Below the pieces are notes generated by a model. It searched no databases, was not told the origin of the DNA, and saw only the letters and a program-made list of their open reading frames with translations. 41,445 nucleotides of DNA from Escherichia coli (GTDB taxonomy: Bacteria > Pseudomonadota > Gammaproteobacteria > Enterobacterales > Enterobacteriaceae), in NCBI RefSeq assembly GCF_016903815.1, contig NZ_CP069975.1; one strand, given 5' to 3'. The position numbers and the translations under genes are program-made. Positions 3,991 to 38,949 of the stretch are shown in pieces. Numbering within the stretch: position 1 is the first letter of the stretch; every line of letters begins with the position of its first letter.

Positions 3991-5420
3991 TCCTCCTCAT
4001 ACGAAATATTAAAGGTGGAGTTTTCTGTATCCAGATAAACGAAATCGTAAAAGCCGTTGGACTCATTCCACTCGACAAATTCCAGATAAAAGTCGCGGAA
4101 ATAACCCAGCGTTTCGATAAATGCCCAAACGTCTTTTTTCTTGATTAGGATGTACTTGCCGACACGGTTCGGATCAAAGAAAGTTGAGTCACGCCCAAAT
4201 TTTGTTTCCAGTGCCGACTTCAGCTCATCAGTCACGTTCTCAATGGTCAGGCTTGCCGATATCCGCCCAGTGATAGTGATCTTAAAGGGGAGTTTTCTGA
4301 CCTCTTTATACGAGAATTTCTTGTTCAACTCATTCGGCACCTTCTTAAAGGCAGCCAGGATCACTTCTTCAAGCTCTGACTGGCTTTTGTTTGGATGCCA
4401 TCCTGAAATAAATATCTTATTGATATTCCGAACATTATAAGCACCATCTAATTTCTCTTGCTGGCCTTCGCCCCATGCCTTTACCCAGGACAGTCCCGGG
4501 ATGTTACGCACCAAAAAATACGTATAGTCCCCGCCCCATACGACCTGATCATCATAGGCAAGGTAATATTGTGCACGATTACGTGTGATCTCCGTTGTTT
4601 CGGCATCGGTACCTGCGGTTATGGGTGTCGTTGTCTTAACTGAAATCAAATTAGCTAAATTAGCCGCAGAATCGACAGGCGTCAGGTTTTGGCCAGCAAC
4701 CAGGGTTATATCTCCGTTGGTGCACCATACCTTAAGTGTAATGGTCGAGCCTTCTGGCGGTATTTGCCCAATTAGCCCATCACCGAATCGAACCCCCAAC
4801 TGCTCGGATGGCTTATAAAACTCAACGTAGACCTGGCTTTTACTACCGGCTAACCGGAACATAGTGCTGGAAGACCACTGCGTGGTCTTACCATCGGTCG
4901 TCACGAATACTTCCAGCTTATAGCAGACAGCAGTGAGAGCCTTTGATAACACGACTTCCAGAAATTCTTTGGCTGCCGTAACGGTATATGTCACCTCCTG
5001 GATTTCCAACTGTGCCACTTCTACCGTACCGGTGCCGTCAACCAACCTGCATACATCCATAGTCATGTAAGGGTACTGGTCGTCAGATATTAAAGGCATA
5101 TTTTTGGGGATTACCGCTGGGGCATCTTCACTTGTGGCGGTGATCTCAATCATCCCCGATGACGGTGTTGGCTTGGTACCAACGTAACTATTCGTTTCTG
5201 CCGCTGCCAGGATAGAGGAACGCCGCGTCGCGGTCGATATAAAGCCTTCAGCCAGCGCCGCATCGGCATACTGAAAGCACCTGTAGACAATCTGGGTAAT
5301 AAACAATGTCAGCATCGAGACAAATTGAGAGCCGACAAACTTCGACCAGAATGAATCTTTCTCGACAAGCTCTTCAAACTCTGCACGAATACTGTCTTTA
5401 GTCGGTGTTGTTTTACTCAT
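3987..5420 (-). CDS. Baseplate protein (P1 BplA-like by position)
   Basis: 477-aa ORF in tightly packed structural operon; 4-nt overlaps with both neighbours. Confidence 0.6.
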   Translation of the reverse strand: MSKTTPTKDSIRAEFEELVEKDSFWSKFVGSQFVSMLTLFITQIVYRCFQYADAALAEGFISTATRRSSILAAAETNSYVGTKPTPSSGMIEITATSEDAPAVIPKNMPLISDDQYPYMTMDVCRLVDGTGTVEVAQLEIQEVTYTVTAAKEFLEVVLSKALTAVCYKLEVFVTTDGKTTQWSSSTMFRLAGSKSQVYVEFYKPSEQLGVRFGDGLIGQIPPEGSTITLKVWCTNGDITLVAGQNLTPVDSAANLANLISVKTTTPITAGTDAETTEITRNRAQYYLAYDDQVVWGGDYTYFLVRNIPGLSWVKAWGEGQQEKLDGAYNVRNINKIFISGWHPNKSQSELEEVILAAFKKVPNELNKKFSYKEVRKLPFKITITGRISASLTIENVTDELKSALETKFGRDSTFFDPNRVGKYILIKKKDVWAFIETLGYFRDFYLEFVEWNESNGFYDFVYLDTENSTFNISYEEE

Positions 5421-5776
5421 AGCACCACGTCCTGTGTGATAGTTATATCCCTGATACGAATGGATATTTTCAACTTATCAAAAGCATCTCCCTCGGCTAC
5501 TGACAAGCCAGAAATCGGTATGTCAGGTAAATCTACCGTCAGTTTTTGCAACAGCATTGCCTCAACCGCAATTTGAACATGCGACAAGTTGGTCGGTTCG
5601 TGTTTAAACTGCGGTAAAACATTGCCCCATGACGGATCTCCGTATACCTCACCCTGATAAGTGTTTAGCCACTCATATAAACGAGCGCCCCAGGCCTCCT
5701 CCTGGGACTCATACGTTTTTACGCCGGATAACTCCAGCGTCAGTAAAGGATCAATTTCATTATTGTTGGCCATCAA
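5417..5776 (-). CDS. Small morphogenesis protein (P1 PmgA-like by position)
   Basis: 119-aa ORF, translationally coupled on both sides. Confidence 0.5.
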   Translation of the reverse strand: MMANNNEIDPLLTLELSGVKTYESQEEAWGARLYEWLNTYQGEVYGDPSWGNVLPQFKHEPTNLSHVQIAVEAMLLQKLTVDLPDIPISGLSVAEGDAFDKLKISIRIRDITITQDVVL

Positions 5777-8700
5777 TCAACTCTCGCGTAGTCATTCATC
5801 AACGGATCATCAATTGACAGTGGCACCGTGCGCATAACGCCCGGTTGAGGCGTGCTGACCTTTACGACAGTTCCCTGGCCTTTCGCCGAGTCTTTAGTGT
5901 GCTCTTCAATCCTGGCAAGCAATGAGGTCATCTGCGCAAACAGCCGCTTCGTTTCACCATCAAGTGAAACGGTATTATCAGCCAACTGCATTGTCGGCTT
6001 GGCACCGGAGCCGCCAAGGTCACTAATAACCTGTCCGTCTATCTGCATACGACCGGTTGGTTGCTGCAAATCGTTGGCGGCAGTCGTCACCTGGGACGTG
6101 GAGGCTGGTTCAGGCGCATTATTTTTCCGCATCCCCGGCGAGTTGCGGAGTTTATCAAATAGTCCATCAATCCCCATTTGTGCGCCGAGTTGGTCAAAGT
6201 AACTTGAGTTGCTGGCCACCGGACGCGCCTCTTCAACTGGCATCGGAGTATCAACATACACATTGCCAGCTGCTGTTGCGGTCCCCTTCCCTCGTGCACG
6301 TTCTTCGAGCGTTCCCTGAACGACTTCCCGACGCATACCCCGGCCATTCATGAATTTGTTGACCAGATCGTTAACGCCAACAGCATTGCCAATTTTGTCT
6401 ACCAGACCGCCTTTCTCAAACGGGCTATCACCAGGGGTAAACGCCAGGCCAGTAGACTGATCGATAACAGCGTTATCAGGCAGTGGTCCCCTCACTCCAT
6501 ATTGCGCCCCACCCTGTGCTCCTGCTCCAGGTGTATAGATTTCACCACCTAAATAGCGAGCACGATGAGTATTGACCTTGATCGCGTACTCACGGTTTTC
6601 TTTCGATAAGTCACCTGTGCCTTTTTTCCACTTATTGATAGTGCCAAACCCAGCATTATATGCAGTGATGGCCTCGTTTAAGTCTCCATTGGCTTGCTTC
6701 AGATATTTGCTCATGAGAAGAGCCGCAGCTTCTGCCGATTTCACAGGATCAAACGATTCACCTTCAGCTAAGCCAGTCTCTTCACGAGCAATCCCCGTGA
6801 ACTGAAACATCCCCAGAGCACCGGTTTGGGATTTTGCATACGGATTACCACCAGATTCAGTTGCAGCAATCGCGTAAAGAGTGCCTTCTGGAAGACCGTA
6901 TTTATTCTCTAGTTCGGCAAAATACGGAGCCAACTTATCGAGATTTGCCTTACCTTCAGCGCCAAGACTTCCGACTTTTACATCCAAGTTGCCATTGTTG
7001 TAGGTATCCGCAGCTTTCTGAATGTCATTCCTGGTGCCAGTGGTATTAAGCGACGATGATGACGAGCTATTTTGACCAATAGCTTTATCAATTTTCTGCA
7101 ACGCGCTATTGCCCGTTTCTACGGCATTTGCATTGATAATCTGATTAGCAGTTTCTTTAACTGTTTTATTGCTATCTTTCGCCGTATCTAGGGATGCATT
7201 TACAACACGAGTGACAATATTAGCCTTTTTAGGGGTATATTCAGTCTTAGGAGCATTGTCCTCCTGACTTTCTTTAGCTGGTGTTTTTAATTCAGGTGTA
7301 ACCTCTTTCGCATCCGCTTTGTTGACTAGCTTTGATGCAACCCAGGCCACAGGGGTGCTCTGAACAGCGGCATCTGCAACCTCACCTGAAAGCTCTTTTG
7401 CGGCACTCCATAGATTACTGCCAGCTTCTTTAATGTATTTCCCTGGGTTCTTAATGAAATCAATTGCACTATCAATTGCATCACTGAAAACCTGTTTCAG
7501 GTTATCGACAGTAAAGAAGTTTTTGATGGCGTCTAATTTTTCGTTCAGGTTCTTTGTTGTGTCACTGAACCATGCTGAAATAGCATCACCAATCTTTGCA
7601 GTATAATCACTAAATGTCGTGGATATAGTATCACCAAGGTTAGAAATATATGTTTCTAAATTGGTAATCCCACTATCAATGGCCTGGGCAATACTTTCCG
7701 TCGAAAATGATTGCAACATATTGCCGATATCCTCAAATCCAAGTGATTTGAGAACGCCGCCAATGGCACTGCTAATACCAGATACCAGTCCTCCCATATC
7801 GAGAACGTTAGCCAGTGTATAAGCCGCTTTTTGCTGAAAAGATGGATCTTCCCCATCCTTAAGCCCAAAGGTCCGACGTTGTGCTTCTGTATCATTCCAA
7901 CCGGTTACCGCATCATAGATACCTCCAGCCACCGTGCCGACTAGCGGAATTGCGCGTAAAGCCCCCTTTGCAAGAGCCTTAACACCTAGTTTCCCCAATC
8001 CCTTAGTTGCAAGTTTTCCGGCACCGCGAGTAGCCAATTCGCCAGCTTCTTTGGCAGCAGCTTTTTTCCCACCAAAGCCCAATAAGCTTGCAACTTTTTT
8101 TATACCTAAAGCGCCTAGTGCCATCGAGCCAACTTTCTTTAGTACCCCACGGCCAAAAATAAGGGAAGCAATACCACCGGCCCCCTTCCCTAACAGGCTA
8201 AATAGTTTGGACAGCAAGCCGCCCTTCTTTTTCCCGGTGTTTTTGGCTATCTGATCAAGGGCGCTGAGAATCTTGTCATTGCCCTCTTTAATTTCGCTGG
8301 TCTGCTCCTGAAGTTCCTGAACCGTCCGTTTTTGGGTGTTAACCTGAACGACATCGGCACTATTTTGCGATTTACGCCTAAAAAAACCTTTTCTACGGCT
8401 GTTATCGTCATTGCCACGAATCACATCGGCAATAGACTTTCTGGCACCATTAAGCGATCCACCAACTTCTTTTGATATCCCGCCAAGCTCCTTCCCTGCT
8501 GCCCACAATGGACCAGCAACGGCATAACCTAACGCATCGACGGCACGAGTCTCTGAAGGGTTACCTATGCCTTCAGCTACTTTTGACAGTTTTTTTAATA
8601 AACCTGATTCAGCATTTAGACGCTCATCATCCTCTTTGCGCCTGGCCTTTTCAGCACGTTCAGCACGGACATCTTCCGCTGCGGCCTTACTCCCTGACTT

Positions 8701-11692: not shown

Positions 11693-12169
11693 TCATTTTG
11701 CGCGCTTCAGGCAGCCATCTTCAGGTGCCGCGTTGAAAAGCTCTGCGGCCTTACGTAGCGTAAATGTTGCGATTTTTTTTCCGTCTACGTATGCATCGAA
11801 TGTTTTAACTTCCATATCAGGGGTATCTGACCAAAAACCATACCAGTAACTATCACCCACAGAGGAACCGATAGAACTGATAGGATATTCATCATCACCA
11901 ACTTTCAGCGTTATTTGTTCTTTTTTAGCATCAAATGACTCACCGCCAGGTTCTGTTTTCATGAGAGTGAGTAGTCGTGTTCCTACTTGATTGGGATCCG
12001 TATTATTAAATCCAACATCGCACTCAAATGTAAGCGTATAATTATCTTTGCTGGAAACAGCATAAGAACGAACACCATGAGTCTCGCCGGTTGACCATTT
12101 GCTTACATTTGCCATTGATGAAAACGGAGTAAGCAAAGCAAGAACTAGTAAAAATCGTTTGATGCGCAT
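11693..12169 (-). CDS. Secreted protein with N-terminal signal peptide (sim-region gene)
   Basis: 158-aa ORF; N-terminus MRIKRFLLVLALLTPFSSMA is a typical Sec signal peptide. Confidence 0.6.
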   Translation of the reverse strand: MRIKRFLLVLALLTPFSSMANVSKWSTGETHGVRSYAVSSKDNYTLTFECDVGFNNTDPNQVGTRLLTLMKTEPGGESFDAKKEQITLKVGDDEYPISSIGSSVGDSYWYGFWSDTPDMEVKTFDAYVDGKKIATFTLRKAAELFNAAPEDGCLKRAK

Positions 12170-12220
12170 TAATTTATCTCCTTTGGATATTAATATTTTA
12201 ATTAGTTAACCACCATATAT

Positions 12221-12868
12221 TCACCATTCATAGGGTAAATTAAGCGCTTTTAAACCTTGCTGGAAAGTATTAAGAGATCCGTTTTTTTGTTGTTCCATTT
12301 TTTCGCGTGCAGCTTTCTCATACTGCTCCATCCGTTGGTTATACTCTTGCAATTCCTCCGGGGAGAGGTTTCCCATTGGGGAGTTTGTACCCGGCCCCCT
12401 GGCTCGTTCTTCAAGCGTACCCTGTACGTTTTGATGGCGCATTCCTGGGGCATTTCTTATTGAGTCAATGCCATTTCTTCCAACATCTTCTTTATTAACG
12501 GCATTGCTCGCCACCAGCACACCCCAGCTAGGGATAGCAAAATCAGGAGCGGTTTCGCATGCCTTTACCATATAATCGAAAGTGCTTCGATTGATCTCGT
12601 TTGCGTCGGGATTTAACAGGCTAGAATATTGATATTTAGCATTTTCGTTGGTTGCGACTTTATACAGTTCTTGCTGCACCATCGCTTCAGAAAGTTTAAG
12701 GCGTTTCATATCTGACAGTAACTTCTTGCGCATGGATTCGTCTTGACTGACAGCAAAGCCGTAAACGTGCCCAAGGTATTTCGTATAATCGGTACAAATC
12801 TCCTTTACGCTTGATGCTGCATTAACAGTCCCAGCCATAAATAATAACGGTAGTAATAGTTTTCTCAT
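12221..12868 (-). CDS. Sim-like superinfection-exclusion periplasmic protein (signal peptide; shares a segment with Sit)
   Basis: ORF track 12221..12895; start placed at ATG 12868 (GGTGAGG RBS) giving signal peptide MRKLLLPLLFMAGTVNAAS. Mature part contains NAPGMRHQNVQGTLEERARGPGT, matching Sit residues GRGMRREVVQGTLEERARGKGT. Location between the tube-region genes and the immI-like region matches P1 sim. Confidence 0.6.
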   Translation of the reverse strand: MRKLLLPLLFMAGTVNAASSVKEICTDYTKYLGHVYGFAVSQDESMRKKLLSDMKRLKLSEAMVQQELYKVATNENAKYQYSSLLNPDANEINRSTFDYMVKACETAPDFAIPSWGVLVASNAVNKEDVGRNGIDSIRNAPGMRHQNVQGTLEERARGPGTNSPMGNLSPEELQEYNQRMEQYEKAAREKMEQQKNGSLNTFQQGLKALNLPYEW

Positions 12869-12964
12869 TATAACCTCACCTGCCTTATAACTCATTTAGG
12901 GTACATATTTTCGCCTTTAAAAAAAAGAGGTTATTAGATCCAATTGTGTATTTATTAAGCATGC

Positions 12965-12981
12965 AATGCTCTAATAAATTT
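12965..12981 (+). promoter_or_regulatory. C1-repressor operator-like 17-mer overlapping the -35 of the immI-like promoter
   Basis: AATGCTCTAATAAATTT is 16/17 to the P1 C1 operator consensus ATTGCTCTAATAAATTT as I recall it. ATGCTC, 17 bp, TAAGTC forms a plausible -35/-10. Confidence 0.6.
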
Positions 12982-13139
12982 GTATTTTTAAGTCGCGAAT
13001 GCTATCTTTTCGCATCATATTGACCTTTTAATCGTTCAGGCTTATAGTTCCGCCGTCGTAGCAAATTCTGCGACCGGGTTTAGCAGCCTGAATACTTACG
13101 CGGACAACCGCAGATTTCCGATATTGCGGTATTTTTGTG

Positions 13140-13240
13140 TCCGTAAACCACGTTACGCCCGAATTATGGTGGGGCGTGATGGGGAGGCTTCGGCCTGCTG
13201 GTTTCGTAAGTGCCAGTCTGCTAACCCCGTCACGTCCTGC
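13140..13240 (+). ncRNA. c4: c4-like antisense RNA region (immunity I), approximate boundaries
   Basis: Non-coding stretch between the operator and icd. Contains CTGCTAACC (13218-13226), complementary to the GTTTAGCAG elements at 13079-13087 and 13246-13254 in the icd leader. Boundaries are not determinable by eye. Confidence 0.4.
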
Positions 13241-13293
13241 CACCTGTTTAGCAGCGGGTCGCAGGTTGTTTATCAACTTACGAGGCCGTAACT

Positions 13294-14584: not shown

Positions 14585-14624
14585 GAGCAGATCGTCCAAC
14601 CCGATCTGGATCGAGTCAGAAAAA

Positions 14625-14641
14625 TTTGCTCTAATAAATTT
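14625..14641 (+). promoter_or_regulatory. C1 operator-like 17-mer overlapping the -35 of the kilA-repL promoter
   Basis: TTTGCTCTAATAAATTT (16/17 to consensus). TTGCTC, 17 bp, TAAGTG; 70 bp upstream of kilA. Confidence 0.6.
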
Positions 14642-14710
14642 CGTTTTCTAAGTGCAAAGAATCACCATTTCGAGCTGGTGATTGAAGGTTGATGCAAATT
14701 TGGAGAAAAA

Positions 14711-15540: not shown

Positions 15541-16386
15541 ATGCTGGCTAAAGTCACTTTCCTGAGCTGTATAACGATGAGCGATTTTACTTTTTCTGGC
15601 TATGAATTGGCCTGCTTTGTAACACACTCCGGTCTATCCCGTAGCACCTGGCATATCCTGTCGCAATGTGCAAATCTCGCGGCAACAACCAGTGAATACT
15701 TCATTCACAAGCCTCACCGCCTGATCGCGGCAGAAACTGGTTATAGCCAATCAACCGTCGTTCGTGCATTCCGTGAAGCTGTAAACAAAGGAATTCTGTC
15801 TGTAGAGATTGTTATCGGCGATCACCGTGAACGTCGCGCTAACCTGTACCGGTTTACGCCATCCTTTTTGGCCTTCGCACAACAAGCCAAAAATGCGCTG
15901 ATTGAAAGCAAATTAAAGATCTCTTCAGCGGCAACCAAGGTTAAAGCTGTTCTCGCTAAGACATTGGCTTTATTTAATTTTTTATCCACACCCCCATGTC
16001 AAAATGATACCCCCTCCCCCTGTCAGGATGACGTGGCAATAAAGAATAAGAAGTCACAAGTTAAAAAAACAAAAAGATCAGTTTCCGGCGGTGCCGGAAC
16101 GAGCAGACTCAAAAAATTGACTTCATGGATCGCTGAGGCAAAAGCAAAGGCTGACAATCTGCGGTTATCCAAAAAGCGCGCTCAAAAACATGAGTTCAAG
16201 CAGAAAGTAGAGGCGGCAGCGCGGAAATATGCTTACCTGAAGAACAAGCGTTCTCCTGATATTGGCGGGGTATCAAACTTCGATAATTTGCCGCATTGCA
16301 TGACGGTAAACGAAGCTCTTAATGCGGTTTTAGCCAAAAATAAAGATAACGAACAATGGGGTATACCGGCAGGATTCAGAGGGTGA
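15541..16386 (+). CDS. repL: RepL-like lytic replication initiator
   Basis: 281-aa ORF immediately after kilA under the same operator-controlled promoter, as in the P1 lytic replicon; basic C-terminal half. The alternative start at ATG 15577 cannot be excluded. Confidence 0.6.
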   Translation: MLAKVTFLSCITMSDFTFSGYELACFVTHSGLSRSTWHILSQCANLAATTSEYFIHKPHRLIAAETGYSQSTVVRAFREAVNKGILSVEIVIGDHRERRANLYRFTPSFLAFAQQAKNALIESKLKISSAATKVKAVLAKTLALFNFLSTPPCQNDTPSPCQDDVAIKNKKSQVKKTKRSVSGGAGTSRLKKLTSWIAEAKAKADNLRLSKKRAQKHEFKQKVEAAARKYAYLKNKRSPDIGGVSNFDNLPHCMTVNEALNAVLAKNKDNEQWGIPAGFRG

Positions 16387-16436
16387 TAGATTGCTCTAAT
16401 CTGGAGTCACCTGGCGTTTTCAGTTTGAGGTCGGAG

Positions 16437-16682
16437 ATGCAATCTGATTTTTTACAGTTAGCGATCGCTTTTGCAGGATATGTTTGTATTGGCTTCTGTG
16501 TATACATGATCAGCCGAAAAATGCTTGTCGATATCGACCGCAAAGAACAAGCAGAGGAGATCTTAGAATGGATTTTCTTTGGCGCGGTCTGGCCATTAGG
16601 GATCATGTTTGCTGCAACATTTCTTCTGATGTGGATATTCACCCTTCCAGGTGATTTCTATAGAAAAAAAGCCAGACATTGA
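16437..16682 (+). CDS. Small membrane protein (two predicted TM helices)
   Basis: ORF track 16356..16682; start placed at ATG 16437 directly after GGAG. Hydrophobic segments LAIAFAGYVCIGFCVYMI and IFFGAVWPLGIMFAATFLLMWIF. Confidence 0.4.
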   Translation: MQSDFLQLAIAFAGYVCIGFCVYMISRKMLVDIDRKEQAEEILEWIFFGAVWPLGIMFAATFLLMWIFTLPGDFYRKKARH

Positions 16683-16864
16683 TACAATCGTTGCGGGTGC
16701 TTGAGGCTATCTGCTTCAGGCATTACCCGAAAAGCAGATAGAAGAAAGCCCCAGATAACATTACGCGTCCTGCAAGACGCTTAACATTAATCTGAGGCCA
16801 TATCTATGCTTAGCATACGTAGATTAACCCTCTCCCCTTTTAAGGAGCAAGGAATTTTTTACTG

Positions 16865-17461
16865 CTATGCCGCATTTCCAATTATGGATTCAGCGACCAG
16901 AACAACCCCATGCTTACTTCGATCTGGGTGTTCACTCCATATCTCGGATTCAGGAATACTTACCCCGTCATAGCAAACACGTTCGCCGTCAAACGGGTAA
17001 TACTGAGCGGCATCGGTGTCAAGGATAAACACTTTTAGCTCGGAAGAGCGACGGGCGATGTGTTGCCAAAGAGCTTTTCCACCTTCGTATTGCTCATTAT
17101 CACTGAGCAAAACAACACCAGCTTTTGAGGCTACGGTTTCGTAAACAAAAGTAGCTAAACCGACATCCCGGACGGTTCCATCAACCACGATACCTTCAAT
17201 CTGGGCAACATCGCTATCCTCCCAGAACTTCCTTACCAGTACGCCTTCAAGCTGCGGGCGACGTTGAAGTTCAAGAGTAGCGACAACCTTATGGCGCATA
17301 TCACCATCGATAACAGAAGGCGCAGCCTCTATTACAGCTGCAAATGGGGTTTTGGAATCCCATATAACCTGGTAAAGCACACCCTGGATGGTAACTCCGT
17401 CCAGGATCGAAAATCGACGAGCGACAGTACCCGGGGAGTACGACATTGGAATCACAGCCAT
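16865..17461 (-). CDS. Hypothetical protein (P1 PmgF-like by position)
   Basis: ORF track 16865..17497; start placed at ATG 17461 with strong RBS AAGGGGGA. Confidence 0.5.
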   Translation of the reverse strand: MAVIPMSYSPGTVARRFSILDGVTIQGVLYQVIWDSKTPFAAVIEAAPSVIDGDMRHKVVATLELQRRPQLEGVLVRKFWEDSDVAQIEGIVVDGTVRDVGLATFVYETVASKAGVVLLSDNEQYEGGKALWQHIARRSSELKVFILDTDAAQYYPFDGERVCYDGVSIPESEIWSEHPDRSKHGVVLVAESIIGNAA

Positions 17462-17590
17462 TTTAGAGTCCCCCTTTAACAGTACAGGCACAAACATCTA
17501 CCTCAATAATTGTAGTTTATTAGAACATTAATAATCTAACATAAAACTCAAGACAATGTTATCGATGCATTCTTATATAAAATAGTTATA

Positions 17591-24196: not shown

Positions 24197-25393
24197 TCAG
24201 TTAGATCTGATAAATTCAATACGGTCAAAAACTGCTTTAGCAAAATCTTCCGCAGCAATTCGCGCGTTCTTCAATGCATCAGCACTACCAACATACGTTG
24301 CCGGGTTAGCTGAAATAACAGTGTCAAAAGACTCGCCGCAGCGTTCAAAACCGTCAAGGCGAGGGAGGACAACATCAAGCATATCCCCACCGAACACTTC
24401 TTTAGCCAGGCTATGGCAATACTTATGGTCTGCCTTGTTACTCAACTTGGACATAAAACCAATGTTAGTTGCAAGCTGACACTCGCAGCCTTCATCCGAA
24501 ATGAGTTTCACCAACTCAGGAAGGCGGGCAACGTATTTAAGCGATGAGTGGAAATCAACCGTTGCAGGCGGCAGAGGTGTAAACAGTATATTGGCCGAGG
24601 CCAAAGCATTTTTCAGGAAGGCGTCAAGGTGAGGACCACTATCAACGAGGATAAAGTCATAATCGCTCTTCAGCTTATCAATCACATTTTCTTTCAGGAC
24701 TGCATGGATGTTCTGACCCGGTAGATGCTCATTGCACAGCTCTCTCCAATCGGATGCAATAAAGGCATCGTCAATCGACGCAGGCATAACGTCAACCCCA
24801 GGTACAACAGAAGGAACAATAAACTCCTCTAACAGCTCTTCACGGCTTACATTCTGCAACATAGCCTGTGCAGATGTTGCGTTTACGATACCAATAGAGT
24901 GTTTATGGCTTAAAAACATCGTTGCTGAAGATTGCGGATCAAGGTCAATAACCAGAATCCTTAAATCTTCCATCAGAAGATGAGGATGAGCACGCATTGC
25001 ATGCGCCAGAGAAACCGTCGATACAGTTTTTGACACACCGCCTTTAAGATTGGAGATGAAAATCACATACGCTTCGCTGTAGCGATCCCGGTATTTTGGC
25101 ACTCCGCGATGTTCATATATGTCAATGATGTTCTGAATTGACATCGCATATTTCATTGAAGAGCCAGCAGGGCGTTTATCGAAAACATAACCCTTTTCTT
25201 CCATTTCACTTACGGCATAGTCAACGTTCGCACGAGTCAGTAGAGGCAATTTTGCCAGTGCCGCTTTCGCATAGACCTGGTAAAACTCGTTCGCGTGTAG
25301 CTCATCCTTTTGCAACTGTACTTGTTCAGTCAGAACATTGAGCATTCTATTTGCTCTTTGAGCAACCTTGTGAAGCTGGCTGGAATCACTCAT
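24197..25393 (-). CDS. parA: Partition ATPase ParA (type Ia, with N-terminal DNA-binding extension)
   Basis: 398-aa ORF with deviant Walker A KGGVSKT and ParA-type motifs. Confidence 0.9.
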   Translation of the reverse strand: MSDSSQLHKVAQRANRMLNVLTEQVQLQKDELHANEFYQVYAKAALAKLPLLTRANVDYAVSEMEEKGYVFDKRPAGSSMKYAMSIQNIIDIYEHRGVPKYRDRYSEAYVIFISNLKGGVSKTVSTVSLAHAMRAHPHLLMEDLRILVIDLDPQSSATMFLSHKHSIGIVNATSAQAMLQNVSREELLEEFIVPSVVPGVDVMPASIDDAFIASDWRELCNEHLPGQNIHAVLKENVIDKLKSDYDFILVDSGPHLDAFLKNALASANILFTPLPPATVDFHSSLKYVARLPELVKLISDEGCECQLATNIGFMSKLSNKADHKYCHSLAKEVFGGDMLDVVLPRLDGFERCGESFDTVISANPATYVGSADALKNARIAAEDFAKAVFDRIEFIRSN

Positions 25394-27589: not shown

Positions 27590-27850
27590 GGATGGCTGTT
27601 ATCAACAGCTGTGAATATTCAGACTCTAAAATCGCTTACAGTCAATGTTTCTGTCGCGTATAGTCAACAATAAATCGCGTGCAGTCAACAATAAATCGTG
27701 CACAGTCAACATAAAATCGCGTATAGTCAATGTTGATCCCATTTCAGGCCAGTAATGACGCGGCTTACAGCGATCCGGGATCTTCTTTGGATCTTCCTAG
27801 GTTCTCTTTAGGATCTGTTTATTGGATCTATGCTGTGGATAAGTTGAATA
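27590..27850. promoter_or_regulatory. Plasmid origin oriR / incC: five iterons, GATC cluster, DnaA boxes
   Basis: Five direct iterons TCGCGTATAGTCAA-type at 27625-27735. Six GATC sites within 95 bp (27735, 27772, 27779, 27790, 27812, 27825). DnaA box TGTGGATAA at 27834-27842 and TTATCAACA-like box near 27612. Confidence 0.8.
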
Positions 27851-36586: not shown

Positions 36587-37951
36587 ATGTCTGCATCCCC
36601 TCTTGAATCCATGCCAAATTCCCTTAGTGCAGAACAAGCTGTACTTGGTGGCTTAATGCTTGATAACTGCCGCTGGGATGAAGTTGCAGATCGTATAGTT
36701 GCTGATGATTTTTATACCAGTGCTCATCGTGAAATTTTCAGTGAGATGGAGAGGTTATTAAGTCATGGCAAACCGATTGATTTGATAACACTTGCTGAAG
36801 CACTTGAACAGAACGGTAAATTAGAACGCGCCGGTGGTTTTGCGTACCTTGCGGAGATGTCAAAGAACACGCCCAGCGCGGCAAATATTTGTGCTTATGC
36901 GGATATCGTTCGTGAACGCGCGGTTGTTCGTGAAATGATTTCCGTCGCAAATGAAATAGCCGAAGCTGGATATGCGCAGGATGGCAGGGGCAGCAATGAA
37001 TTGCTGGATATGGCCGAGCGCCGCGTTTTTGAAATAGCTGAAAAACGACAAAAGAGCGGTAGTGGTCCAAAAGATATCGCCAGCATTCTCGATGCAACGG
37101 TATCTCGCATAGAAGAGTTGTTTCAGCGACCGCATGATGGTGTAACGGGGCTTGATACCGGATTTACCGACCTCAATAAGAAGACGGCAGGACTTCAGCC
37201 GTCCGATCTCATTATTGTCGCCGCCCGCCCATCGATGGGGAAGACCACGTTTGCGATGAATCTCGTCGAAAATGCCGCAGTCCGTAACGATAAGCCCGTA
37301 TTGGTTTTTAGCCTTGAGATGCCGAGCCACCAGCTGATGATGCGCTCACTGGCTTCTCTTGCACGCGTTGATCAGACTCGTATTAGAACGGGGCAACTTA
37401 ACGACGATGATTGGGCGCGGGTTTCTGGCGCAATGGGTATTCTGTTGGACAAGCAGAATATTTTTATTGATGACTCAAGCGCCCTGACGCCGACAGAGCT
37501 ACGTTCCCGCGCTCGTCGTGTTTATAAAGAAAATGGTGGTTTGAGCATGATTATGATCGACTACCTGCAACTTATGCGCGTCCCCGAGCTGCAAGATAAC
37601 CGAACGCTGGAAATTGCCGAGATTTCTCGATCACTTAAAGCGTTGGCGAAGGAATTACAAGTACCGGTGGTGGCATTGTCACAACTTAATCGCTCGCTTG
37701 AACAGCGCGCGGACAAACGACCGGTAAATTCAGATTTACGTGAATCAGGAGCAATTGAGCAGGACGCAGACCTGATCATGTTTCTGTATCGCGACGAAGT
37801 TTATCACCCGGATAGCGAAATGAAGGGCATTGCCGAGGTAATTATCGGAAAGCAACGAAATGGCCCAATTGGCACGGTGAGATTGGCTTTTAACGGCCAA
37901 TACTCACGGTTTGATAACTATGCCGGTGCTGACTGGCAAGAGGATTATTAA
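36587..37951 (+). CDS. ban: Replicative DNA helicase, DnaB analogue (Ban)
   Basis: ORF track 36581..37951; ATG 36587 with GGTGGAG RBS. Walker A ARPSMGKTTFAMN and DnaB-family motifs throughout. Confidence 0.9.
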   Translation: MSASPLESMPNSLSAEQAVLGGLMLDNCRWDEVADRIVADDFYTSAHREIFSEMERLLSHGKPIDLITLAEALEQNGKLERAGGFAYLAEMSKNTPSAANICAYADIVRERAVVREMISVANEIAEAGYAQDGRGSNELLDMAERRVFEIAEKRQKSGSGPKDIASILDATVSRIEELFQRPHDGVTGLDTGFTDLNKKTAGLQPSDLIIVAARPSMGKTTFAMNLVENAAVRNDKPVLVFSLEMPSHQLMMRSLASLARVDQTRIRTGQLNDDDWARVSGAMGILLDKQNIFIDDSSALTPTELRSRARRVYKENGGLSMIMIDYLQLMRVPELQDNRTLEIAEISRSLKALAKELQVPVVALSQLNRSLEQRADKRPVNSDLRESGAIEQDADLIMFLYRDEVYHPDSEMKGIAEVIIGKQRNGPIGTVRLAFNGQYSRFDNYAGADWQEDY

Positions 37952-38949
37952 TGCAATGGAATGAGGAAAAGCCGATGAACATCCTGATCATTGGGCGAAA
38001 ATTTGAAGCCATCAGTGATGTGAAAACATATACGGAAATGTGGGCTTATAACCTGGCATGCGCCTTTAGTGAGGCAGGGGTAACATTGCAATACCATCGT
38101 CCATATTCCCCTGGCGTCGAAAGCCCCGAGGATTATGTTGAAGCTGTGTTGACTGCTGCGACCGCATGTTCTGCGAAGGCCATTTTGGCACCAGGATTGA
38201 GGTATTTTACTACGGTACCCAGGGAAATAGGCATGCAACTGTGTCGCCGATTCTCTGGATGGGTAGCCCAGGTATATGACGGTTCTATGCTGGATTCGGC
38301 ACCAGTCGATATTACTTTTACTGTCCGCGATGATACCTGGCGGTACCTGGATAATCCCGGTCGGTTAGAGCGTCATAATCGCTTTAACAAACATGTTGGA
38401 TGGGCAGCGAATCAGGAACTGTTCCATCTGGAAACCAAAACAGACGATGTTCTGCGTATTTTTGTAGACCACGCTGCATTTGATGTTAGTGGGTTTGATC
38501 ACTCCTTAAGTATCCTTATGAACCTTCAGCGCCTGGCCGTTCCGTATGAGGCCAGAACGTTGACCGATGACGGATTGATTACCATTGATCCGGGGAATAT
38601 ATCGGTAACCCCATACAGACGGACTCCGGTACCAGCAACCGAATTTGCAGCTGAATTGCGTAAGAGTGACGTTTTTATTGTTACGCATCCCGAAAGCCTT
38701 GGATTAACTGTTCTTGAGGCGGCAATGTGTGGGGCGTTGATATTAACGCCGCCCGATTGTCTTCCGCCGGATCGCCTGGCTTTGGTGAACCATATGGTTA
38801 TCAAGTCGCGGATTGATTGGGATGAGGTTATTGCTCGCGTTGATCGCGTGAAAAATGCTGAAAAGGTCCAGTGTCACACCTGGTCGGCAATCGCGGAAAA
38901 GATGCTTGATACGTTTATCACCCAGAAACCGTCGCGAGGTAACGGATAA
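37951..38949 (+). CDS. GT-B glycosyltransferase-like protein (P1 Dbn position), translationally coupled to ban
   Basis: ATG overlaps the ban stop (TAATG); alternative start ATG 37975. C-terminal SDVFIVTHPESLGLTVLEAAMCGALILTP resembles the GT1/GT4 E-x7-E/EAMA motif. Confidence 0.55.
   Translation: MQWNEEKPMNILIIGRKFEAISDVKTYTEMWAYNLACAFSEAGVTLQYHRPYSPGVESPEDYVEAVLTAATACSAKAILAPGLRYFTTVPREIGMQLCRRFSGWVAQVYDGSMLDSAPVDITFTVRDDTWRYLDNPGRLERHNRFNKHVGWAANQELFHLETKTDDVLRIFVDHAAFDVSGFDHSLSILMNLQRLAVPYEARTLTDDGLITIDPGNISVTPYRRTPVPATEFAAELRKSDVFIVTHPESLGLTVLEAAMCGALILTPPDCLPPDRLALVNHMVIKSRIDWDEVIARVDRVKNAEKVQCHTWSAIAEKMLDTFITQKPSRGNG

Follow-up and report, generated by a model that had tools for sequence, protein, structure and literature searches.

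The lysogeny repressor C1 of bacteriophage P1 binds asymmetric 17-mers and blocks adjacent promoters, and its binding is strengthened by Lxc through a ternary complex; 22 C1 operators are known in P1, with the asymmetric 17-bp consensus ATTGCTCTAATAAATTT (PMC8546580). Coi and Ant1/Ant2 relieve repression by inactivating C1, and Ant is itself restrained by the c4 RNA (PMC8546580). The genes dmt, kilA, ssb, and ban belong to the C1-controlled set, their induction having been measured by RT-qPCR after heat inactivation of C1.100 (PMC4713147), and C1 occupying Op53 overlaps P53 and prevents expression of kilA and repL (PMC9948254, citing Eliason & Sternberg 1987 and Velleman et al. 1987).

The DNA analyzed here (the window, a stretch of 41,445 nucleotides from Escherichia coli) is collinear with phage P1 (AF234172) from ~37.1 to 76.2 kb, with a megablast identity of 96 to 97% and some cassettes replaced. 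By its sequence it is part of a P1-like (Punavirus) plasmid-prophage of E. coli. Its closest relative is E. coli plasmid pMB9880_2 (NZ_CP103764.1), with 99.2% identity over window positions 1271 to 41445, and the central 10 kb of the window matches 865 plasmid records. ARAGORN predicted tRNA-Asn, tRNA-Thr, and a tRNA with a CAU anticodon, with P1 tRNA genes located at the same places, and the Rfam search of the window returned three tRNAs and a sok-like RNA in addition to the C4 RNA and its targets described below. Two repeats were also found. At 371 to 1961, within a tail fiber (S-like) gene on the minus strand, lie 5.3 copies of a 300-bp tandem repeat (98% identical); pMB9880_2 has fewer copies, and the S gene of P1 is annotated with different repeated elements (a0, a1, b1, and b2). 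Positions 27654 to 27730 contain 3.7 copies of the 21-bp tandem repeat TCGCGTACAGTCAACAATAAA; the corresponding part of the P1 genome contains RepA iterons.

A first-pass annotation, made from the letters of the window, had listed four plus-strand 17-mers with 0 or 1 mismatch to a word that is exactly the published C1 consensus (PMC8546580). All four are present, and comparison with P1 gives each an identity: AATGCTCTAATAAATTT at 12965 to 12981 is P1 Oc4 (former Op51; P1 48140 to 48156), TTTGCTCTAATAAATTT at 14625 to 14641 is OrepL (former Op53; P1 49810 to 49826), ATTGCTCTAATAAATAT at 30079 to 30095 is Odmt (former Op68; P1 65145 to 65161), and the perfect consensus ATTGCTCTAATAAATTT at 33760 to 33776 is Obana (former Op72a; P1 68667 to 68683), which is also found in P7 at 70972 to 70988. 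To these is added a minus-strand copy with two mismatches, ATTACACTAATAAATTT at 33771 to 33787, which is P1 Obanb (former Op72b; P1 68678 to 68694, minus strand). The five 17-mers are base-for-base identical to binding sites annotated for "phage repressor C1" in AF234172, their flanks are near-identical over ~115 bp, and they occupy positions that are orthologous and syntenic to experimentally defined P1 operators. The P1 annotation from 35.0 to 76.2 kb, which covers the whole syntenic span, contains only one further C1 operator, Orlf (Op55).

The recurrence of the word is far above expectation. With up to three mismatches to ATTGCTCTAATAAATTT allowed, the window contains five matches compared with 0.20 expected, and none of 100 dinucleotide-preserving shuffles reached five. 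The window was also scanned with two position weight matrices. The first was built from 13 annotated P1 operators and contains the same sequences as the window sites; it scored the five sites at 24.5 to 28.2 bits and the next window match at 11.3 bits, while the maxima of 60 simulated windows averaged 12.7 bits and did not exceed 18.7 bits. Leave-one-out scores of the identical P1 sites were 21.4 to 27.7 bits. The second matrix was built solely from sites of the diverged Cronobacter phage JK004 and is thus independent of the window sequence; it scored the five sites at 19.8 to 28.9 bits, compared with simulated maxima that averaged 12.2 bits and reached 18.3 bits at the highest. The two scans agree on the five sites. 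A minus-strand match at 37941 to 37957 was rejected as an operator, since it scores at chance level (9.5 to 10.3 bits), falls within coding sequence where ban and dbn meet, and is unannotated in P1. In a scan of IMG/VR with the 14-mer TTGCTCTAATAAAT, the matches listed were mostly single and presumably due to chance, and four or five per contig occurred in only two of the contigs listed.

We conclude with high confidence that the 17-mers represent asymmetric operators of a P1-type lysogeny repressor C1, namely, Op51, Op53, Op68, and the bivalent Op72a/b. Because their sequences are identical to P1 operators, C1 would be expected to act at the window sites, and the earlier proposal that a single C1-type repressor serves four operons is supported by the identity of all five sites with annotated P1 C1 operators. 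Neither the sites nor their control by one repressor is new: these are textbook P1 C1 operators, carried without change by one P1-like plasmid among hundreds.

The four plus-strand sites lie upstream of the c4-icd-ant (immI) operon, kilA-repL, uhr-hrdC-dmt, and the tRNA/tci/ban block, as had been claimed and as annotated in P1 and P7. Each operator shares the orientation of the early or lytic operon downstream of it, and the same rule holds at the sites of pMB9880_2. For the promoters, positions were transferred from those promoters of the P1 record that are not flagged as predicted. Oc4 would control P2c4 (P51a) of the immI operon, which comprises the c4 RNA, icd, and ant1/ant2. This promoter is placed at 12979 to 13008 (plus strand; P1 48154 to 48183 shifted by −35175, with identical flanks), with a −35 at 12979 to 12985 that overlaps the last 3 bp of Oc4 and a −10 hexamer, TATCTT, at 13003 to 13008. 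A second promoter, P1c4 (P51b; TTGACC and TATAGT separated by 17 bp, 13020 to 13048, plus strand), was called by the promoter scan, is annotated in P1 at 48195 to 48223, and has no operator over it. The immI context is confirmed by Rfam, which places the C4 antisense RNA (13162 to 13247) and the a1b1 targets of C4 RNA (13042 to 13094) downstream of Oc4. Upstream of Op51, the sim (superimmunity) genes of P1 are replaced at 11693 to 12895 (minus strand) by open reading frames of 224 and 158 amino acids (phrog_3933 and phrog_3429, no function assigned); the JK004 homologue of the 224-amino-acid gene adjoins bplB and has an operator-like site beside it (JK004 13242 to 13258).

The other promoters are related to their operators in different ways. 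OrepL covers the −10 of PkilA (P53) and would control kilA and repL, the lytic replicon. PkilA lies at 14607 to 14635 (plus strand; P1 49792 to 49820 shifted by −35185), with a −35 hexamer, TGGATC (14607 to 14612), that contains a GATC Dam site and a −10 hexamer, TCTAAT (14630 to 14635), that corresponds to operator positions 6 to 11. Odmt abuts the −35 of Pdmt (30095 to 30124, plus strand; P1 65161 to 65190 shifted by −35066), whose −35 is TTGTTT (30095 to 30100) and −10 is TACCAT (30119 to 30124). Obana overlaps the dmt stop codon, and its TTGCTC is the −35 of P1ban (33761 to 33766). The P1ban −10, TAATAT, lies at 33784 to 33789, so that the −35 lies within Op72a and Op72b extends into the −10. 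The two 17-mers form an inverted pair with a 6-bp overlap and a total length of 28 bp, identical to P1 Obanab (68667 to 68694). By its sequence, the ban operator is bivalent, of the Op72ab/Op99ab type, and its partner Op72b was absent from the first-pass annotation. Directly downstream of this operator, positions 33832 to 33929 are 75 to 82% identical to lambdoid and Stx phages and correspond to the "dicF-like region" annotated in P1.

Alternatively, the sites could be copies of a common promoter module and not repressor sites, with a TTGCTC −35, a −10 placed 17 bp downstream, and a likeness between copies that stems from promoter duplication. Indeed, it had been claimed that each of the four sites overlaps a −35 (TTGCTC or ATGCTC) of a promoter with this spacing. 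The claim is correct at ban, where the P1 annotation uses TTGCTC and TAATAT, but not at Op51, Op53, or Op68: in the P1 geometry, Op53 lies over a −10, and Op51 and Op68 adjoin a −35 at their own 3′ ends. Several lines of evidence argue against the module. First, the −10 hexamers it requires at these three sites (TAAGTC, TAAGTG, and TATGTC) match TATAAT at only two or three of six positions and lack the final T, and a consensus promoter scan that called P1c4 (P51b) called none of the four proposed promoters. Second, operator positions 26 to 30 have low information content in pMB9880_2 (0.03 to 0.3 bits) and JK004 (≤0.4 bits). Third, in the alignment of Op68 with JK004 it is the annotated Pdmt −10 further downstream that is conserved (TACCAT/TAACAT), rather than TATGTC. 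Fourth, the word covers the −10 of P53 and falls within the spacer of P2ref, as would fit a variably placed protein-binding site rather than a promoter element of fixed position. The promoter positions at Op51 and Op68 follow the transferred P1 annotation, with the Pdmt −10 as the one element corroborated by conservation.

The likeness on which the promoter module draws is nevertheless real. The 3′ flanks of Op51, Op53, and Op68 resemble each other (gtatttttaagtcg, cgttttctaagtgc, and tgttttttatgtcg), each consisting of a T-tract followed by TAAGTC, TAAGTG, or TATGTC, and this resemblance is probably what had been seen as promoters. The T-rich extension occupies positions 20 to 25 from the operator start (12984 to 12989, 14644 to 14649, and 30098 to 30103, plus strand) and is conserved family-wide, which could also be expected of a promoter module. 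Among the 16 monovalent pMB9880_2 sites, positions 20 to 25 read (A/T)TTTTT with ~1 bit each at positions 21 to 23 and 25, and positions 19 to 25 of the pMB9880_2 sites contain a mean of 4.6 T residues compared with 1.8 in random plasmid 7-mers. The 18 JK004 sites contain 4.1 T residues, compared with 1.6 genome-wide and 2.6 in the 5′ flank. A T5-7 tract located 3 to 9 bp past the 3′ end of the 17-mer is thus conserved at most monovalent sites of two diverged lineages, and the Op68 footprint alignment shows it conserved as well; it is not part of the usual 17-bp consensus. The tract may in part be the abutting −35 (TTGTTT, TTGATT, or TTGTAT), yet it is more general than the sites with G at position 19. 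The tract could contribute to recognition or bending by C1 or C1-Lxc and not just be a promoter element. Taken as a whole, a duplicated promoter module is very improbable as the source of the repeated word.

Operator identity is further illuminated by relatives of the element. Phage JK004 has a C1 that is 77% identical, and its DNA is 67 to 75% identical to the window in coding regions. Its genome contains 18 sites with up to three mismatches, compared with ~0.3 by chance, including an orthologue of Op68 upstream of uhr-hrdC-dmt (24822 to 24838), two sites before ban (29881 and 29909), and a cluster around c1/coi. The Op68 orthologue retains 15 of 17 bases amid poorly conserved intergenic DNA, and the conserved blocks in a three-way alignment of this intergenic region are the operator (15/17), the adjoining TGTTTTTT, and TA(C/A)CAT ~23 bp further on. 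The region upstream of kilA did not permit footprinting among plasmid relatives, as full-length matches were ≥97% identical and the rest covered ~57 bp, and phage D6 was of no help for the ban operator, as it is not syntenic downstream of dmt, where glnS follows.

A tblastn search with P1 C1 and Coi found no match within the 41-kb window, and c1 of P1 lies at 93.2 to 94.1 kb, outside the syntenic span. The C1 of pMB9880_2 is identical to P1 C1 (C1.100) at 281 of 283 residues, and this closest relative provides a strong indication that the window element carries a cognate C1. The plasmid has 22 matches of ≥12 bits, of which the strong ones comprise the five window sites and sites upstream of c1/coi, ref, mat, ssb, lpa, and a second icd-ant copy. 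This second copy (pMB9880_2 5165 to 6837) adjoins c1 and has its own operator, TTTGCTCTAATAAATTG, at 5165 to 5181, an arrangement that would place two antirepressor operons under C1 control. That the window sites are instead bound by a heteroimmune repressor of another specificity, or are relics without a cognate repressor, is barely credible: although c1 is outside the window and P1-like plasmids are mosaic, with the sim and rlf regions replaced here, the C1 of the closest full-length relative is 99% identical to that of P1, 18 of 21 phage records with a C1 (P1, P7, RCS47, and SJ46 among them) encode one that is ≥98.6% identical, and all five sites are perfectly preserved, in contrast to Op55, whose decay illustrates the appearance of a relic.

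Op55 (Orlf), ATTGCTCTAATTATAAC in P1, is located directly after repL, and the window departs from P1 after operator base 11. The left 11 bp, ATTGCTCTAAT, remain at 16390 to 16400 (plus strand), and the corresponding 17 bp of the window (16390 to 16406) read ATTGCTCTAATCTGGAG. The operator is truncated because the rlfA/rlfB module has been replaced, by a cassette that extends up to ~17590 and is common to phages 673R5, RCS47, and SJ46. The remnant scores from −1.5 to 5 bits, depending on the pseudocount, and is probably nonfunctional; like Op72b, it was absent from the first-pass annotation. P1, the window element, and SJ46 all diverge within or beside Op55, which suggests that a variable cargo module has its junction here, downstream of repL. 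In place of rlfA/rlfB are open reading frames of 210 amino acids (16865 to 17497, minus strand) and 108 amino acids (16356 to 16682, plus strand), which match only phrog_7522 and phrog_3772, respectively, with no function assigned, and returned no PADLOC or confident NCBIfam match. The same non-P1 cassette contains an Rfam match to the sok antitoxin RNA at 16695 to 16869 (plus strand; 94.7 bits, E = 3e−20). On this evidence, a toxin-antitoxin module of the hok/sok type may lie between repL and bplB, where a related record annotates MokW.

Three weaker matches had been proposed to tune repression, and two of them find no support. Positions 12929 to 12945 have 10 to 12 mismatches whichever strand is read, score below zero, rise no higher than zero when shifted, and resemble an operator only with one base inserted (ATTGGATCTAATAAC). 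Positions 30010 to 30026 have 11 mismatches and, when shifted by 2, correspond to the left half TTTGCTCT only, at ~0 bits. The third, AATGTTCTAATAAACTA at 17513 to 17529 (minus strand), is borderline. It has four mismatches and only a chance-level score with the P1 matrix (11.3 bits), but it reaches 16.7 bits with the JK004 matrix, a score exceeded in 3% of simulations. The JK004 matrix tolerates its T at position 5, which is present in 4 of the 18 JK004 sites. The site lies 16 bp upstream of the ATG of the 210-amino-acid gene in the replacement cassette and in the same orientation, and it carries a T-rich 3′ flank; in addition, three annotated P1 operators (Op55, Oc1c, and Oc1b) score below it in leave-one-out analysis. 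The consensus promoter scan called no promoter at this position, and conservation is uninformative because the region is 99% identical in SJ46. The sequence may conceivably be a weak C1 operator within a non-P1 cassette, an assignment that we hold tentatively and regard as rather doubtful. If it is a true operator, then a non-P1 cargo gene (phrog_7522) would be under lysogenic repression. It is unlikely that the element departs from textbook P1 in all three respects considered here, i.e., that the C1 site is longer than the 17-mer, that 17513 to 17529 is a real weak operator, and that the half-operator at 16390 to 16400 marks a module junction.

C1 binding, promoter occlusion, and modulation by Lxc are proposed for this element by analogy with published work on P1. 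C1, encoded elsewhere on the element, would bind each site in the lysogen and block RNA polymerase at the adjacent σ70 promoter. The placement of the operator would vary, from a position over the −10 (P53), through one over the −35 and into the −10 (P1ban), to one abutting the −35 (P2c4 and Pdmt). The antirepressor operon would thereby stay silent, as would the lytic replicon, the dmt methylase operon, and the tRNA/ban helicase block, and inactivation of C1 by Coi or Ant1/Ant2 would derepress all four sets together. For annotation, the five sites and the P1-corrected promoter geometry mark the early lytic regulon of the element, and scattered copies of ATTGCTCTAATAAATTT allow P1-type immunity to be recognized quickly. 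Research on P1 regulation may find small leads in the T-tract extension and in the possible cargo gene operator.

In comparison with known systems, the window shares with P1 (AF234172/NC_005856) the same 17-mers, flanks, and downstream operons in the same order. The window belongs to a P1-like plasmid and not to P1 itself, and it differs from P1 in that Op55 (Orlf) is reduced to its left 11 bp, with the rlfA/rlfB module replaced, and in the possible extra weak site at 17513 to 17529 in a non-P1 cassette. The ban operator region is closest to that of P7 (AF503408; Op(ban[a])/Op(ban[b])), with 97.8% identity over 501 bp, and P7 has the same bivalent inverted pair, with no difference at the operator itself. 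JK004, in whose record the sites are unannotated and were found here, has the same 17-bp consensus, orientation rule, and T-rich 3′ extension. In contrast to the overlapping inverted pair of P1 and P7, however, JK004 has two direct-repeat sites 28 bp apart at ban (29881 to 29925), so that the same gene has a bivalent arrangement of another kind; it also tolerates T at position 5 and lacks the immI/kilA-repL module at the syntenic position. A more distant parallel is phage lambda, in which cI acting at OL and OR is likewise a single lysogeny repressor that occludes early lytic promoters. Lxc, which tunes C1 in P1, has no lambda homologue (PMC8546580), and while the operators of lambda are palindromic and clustered at one control region, those of P1 are asymmetric and scattered singly around the genome (22 sites; PMC8546580).
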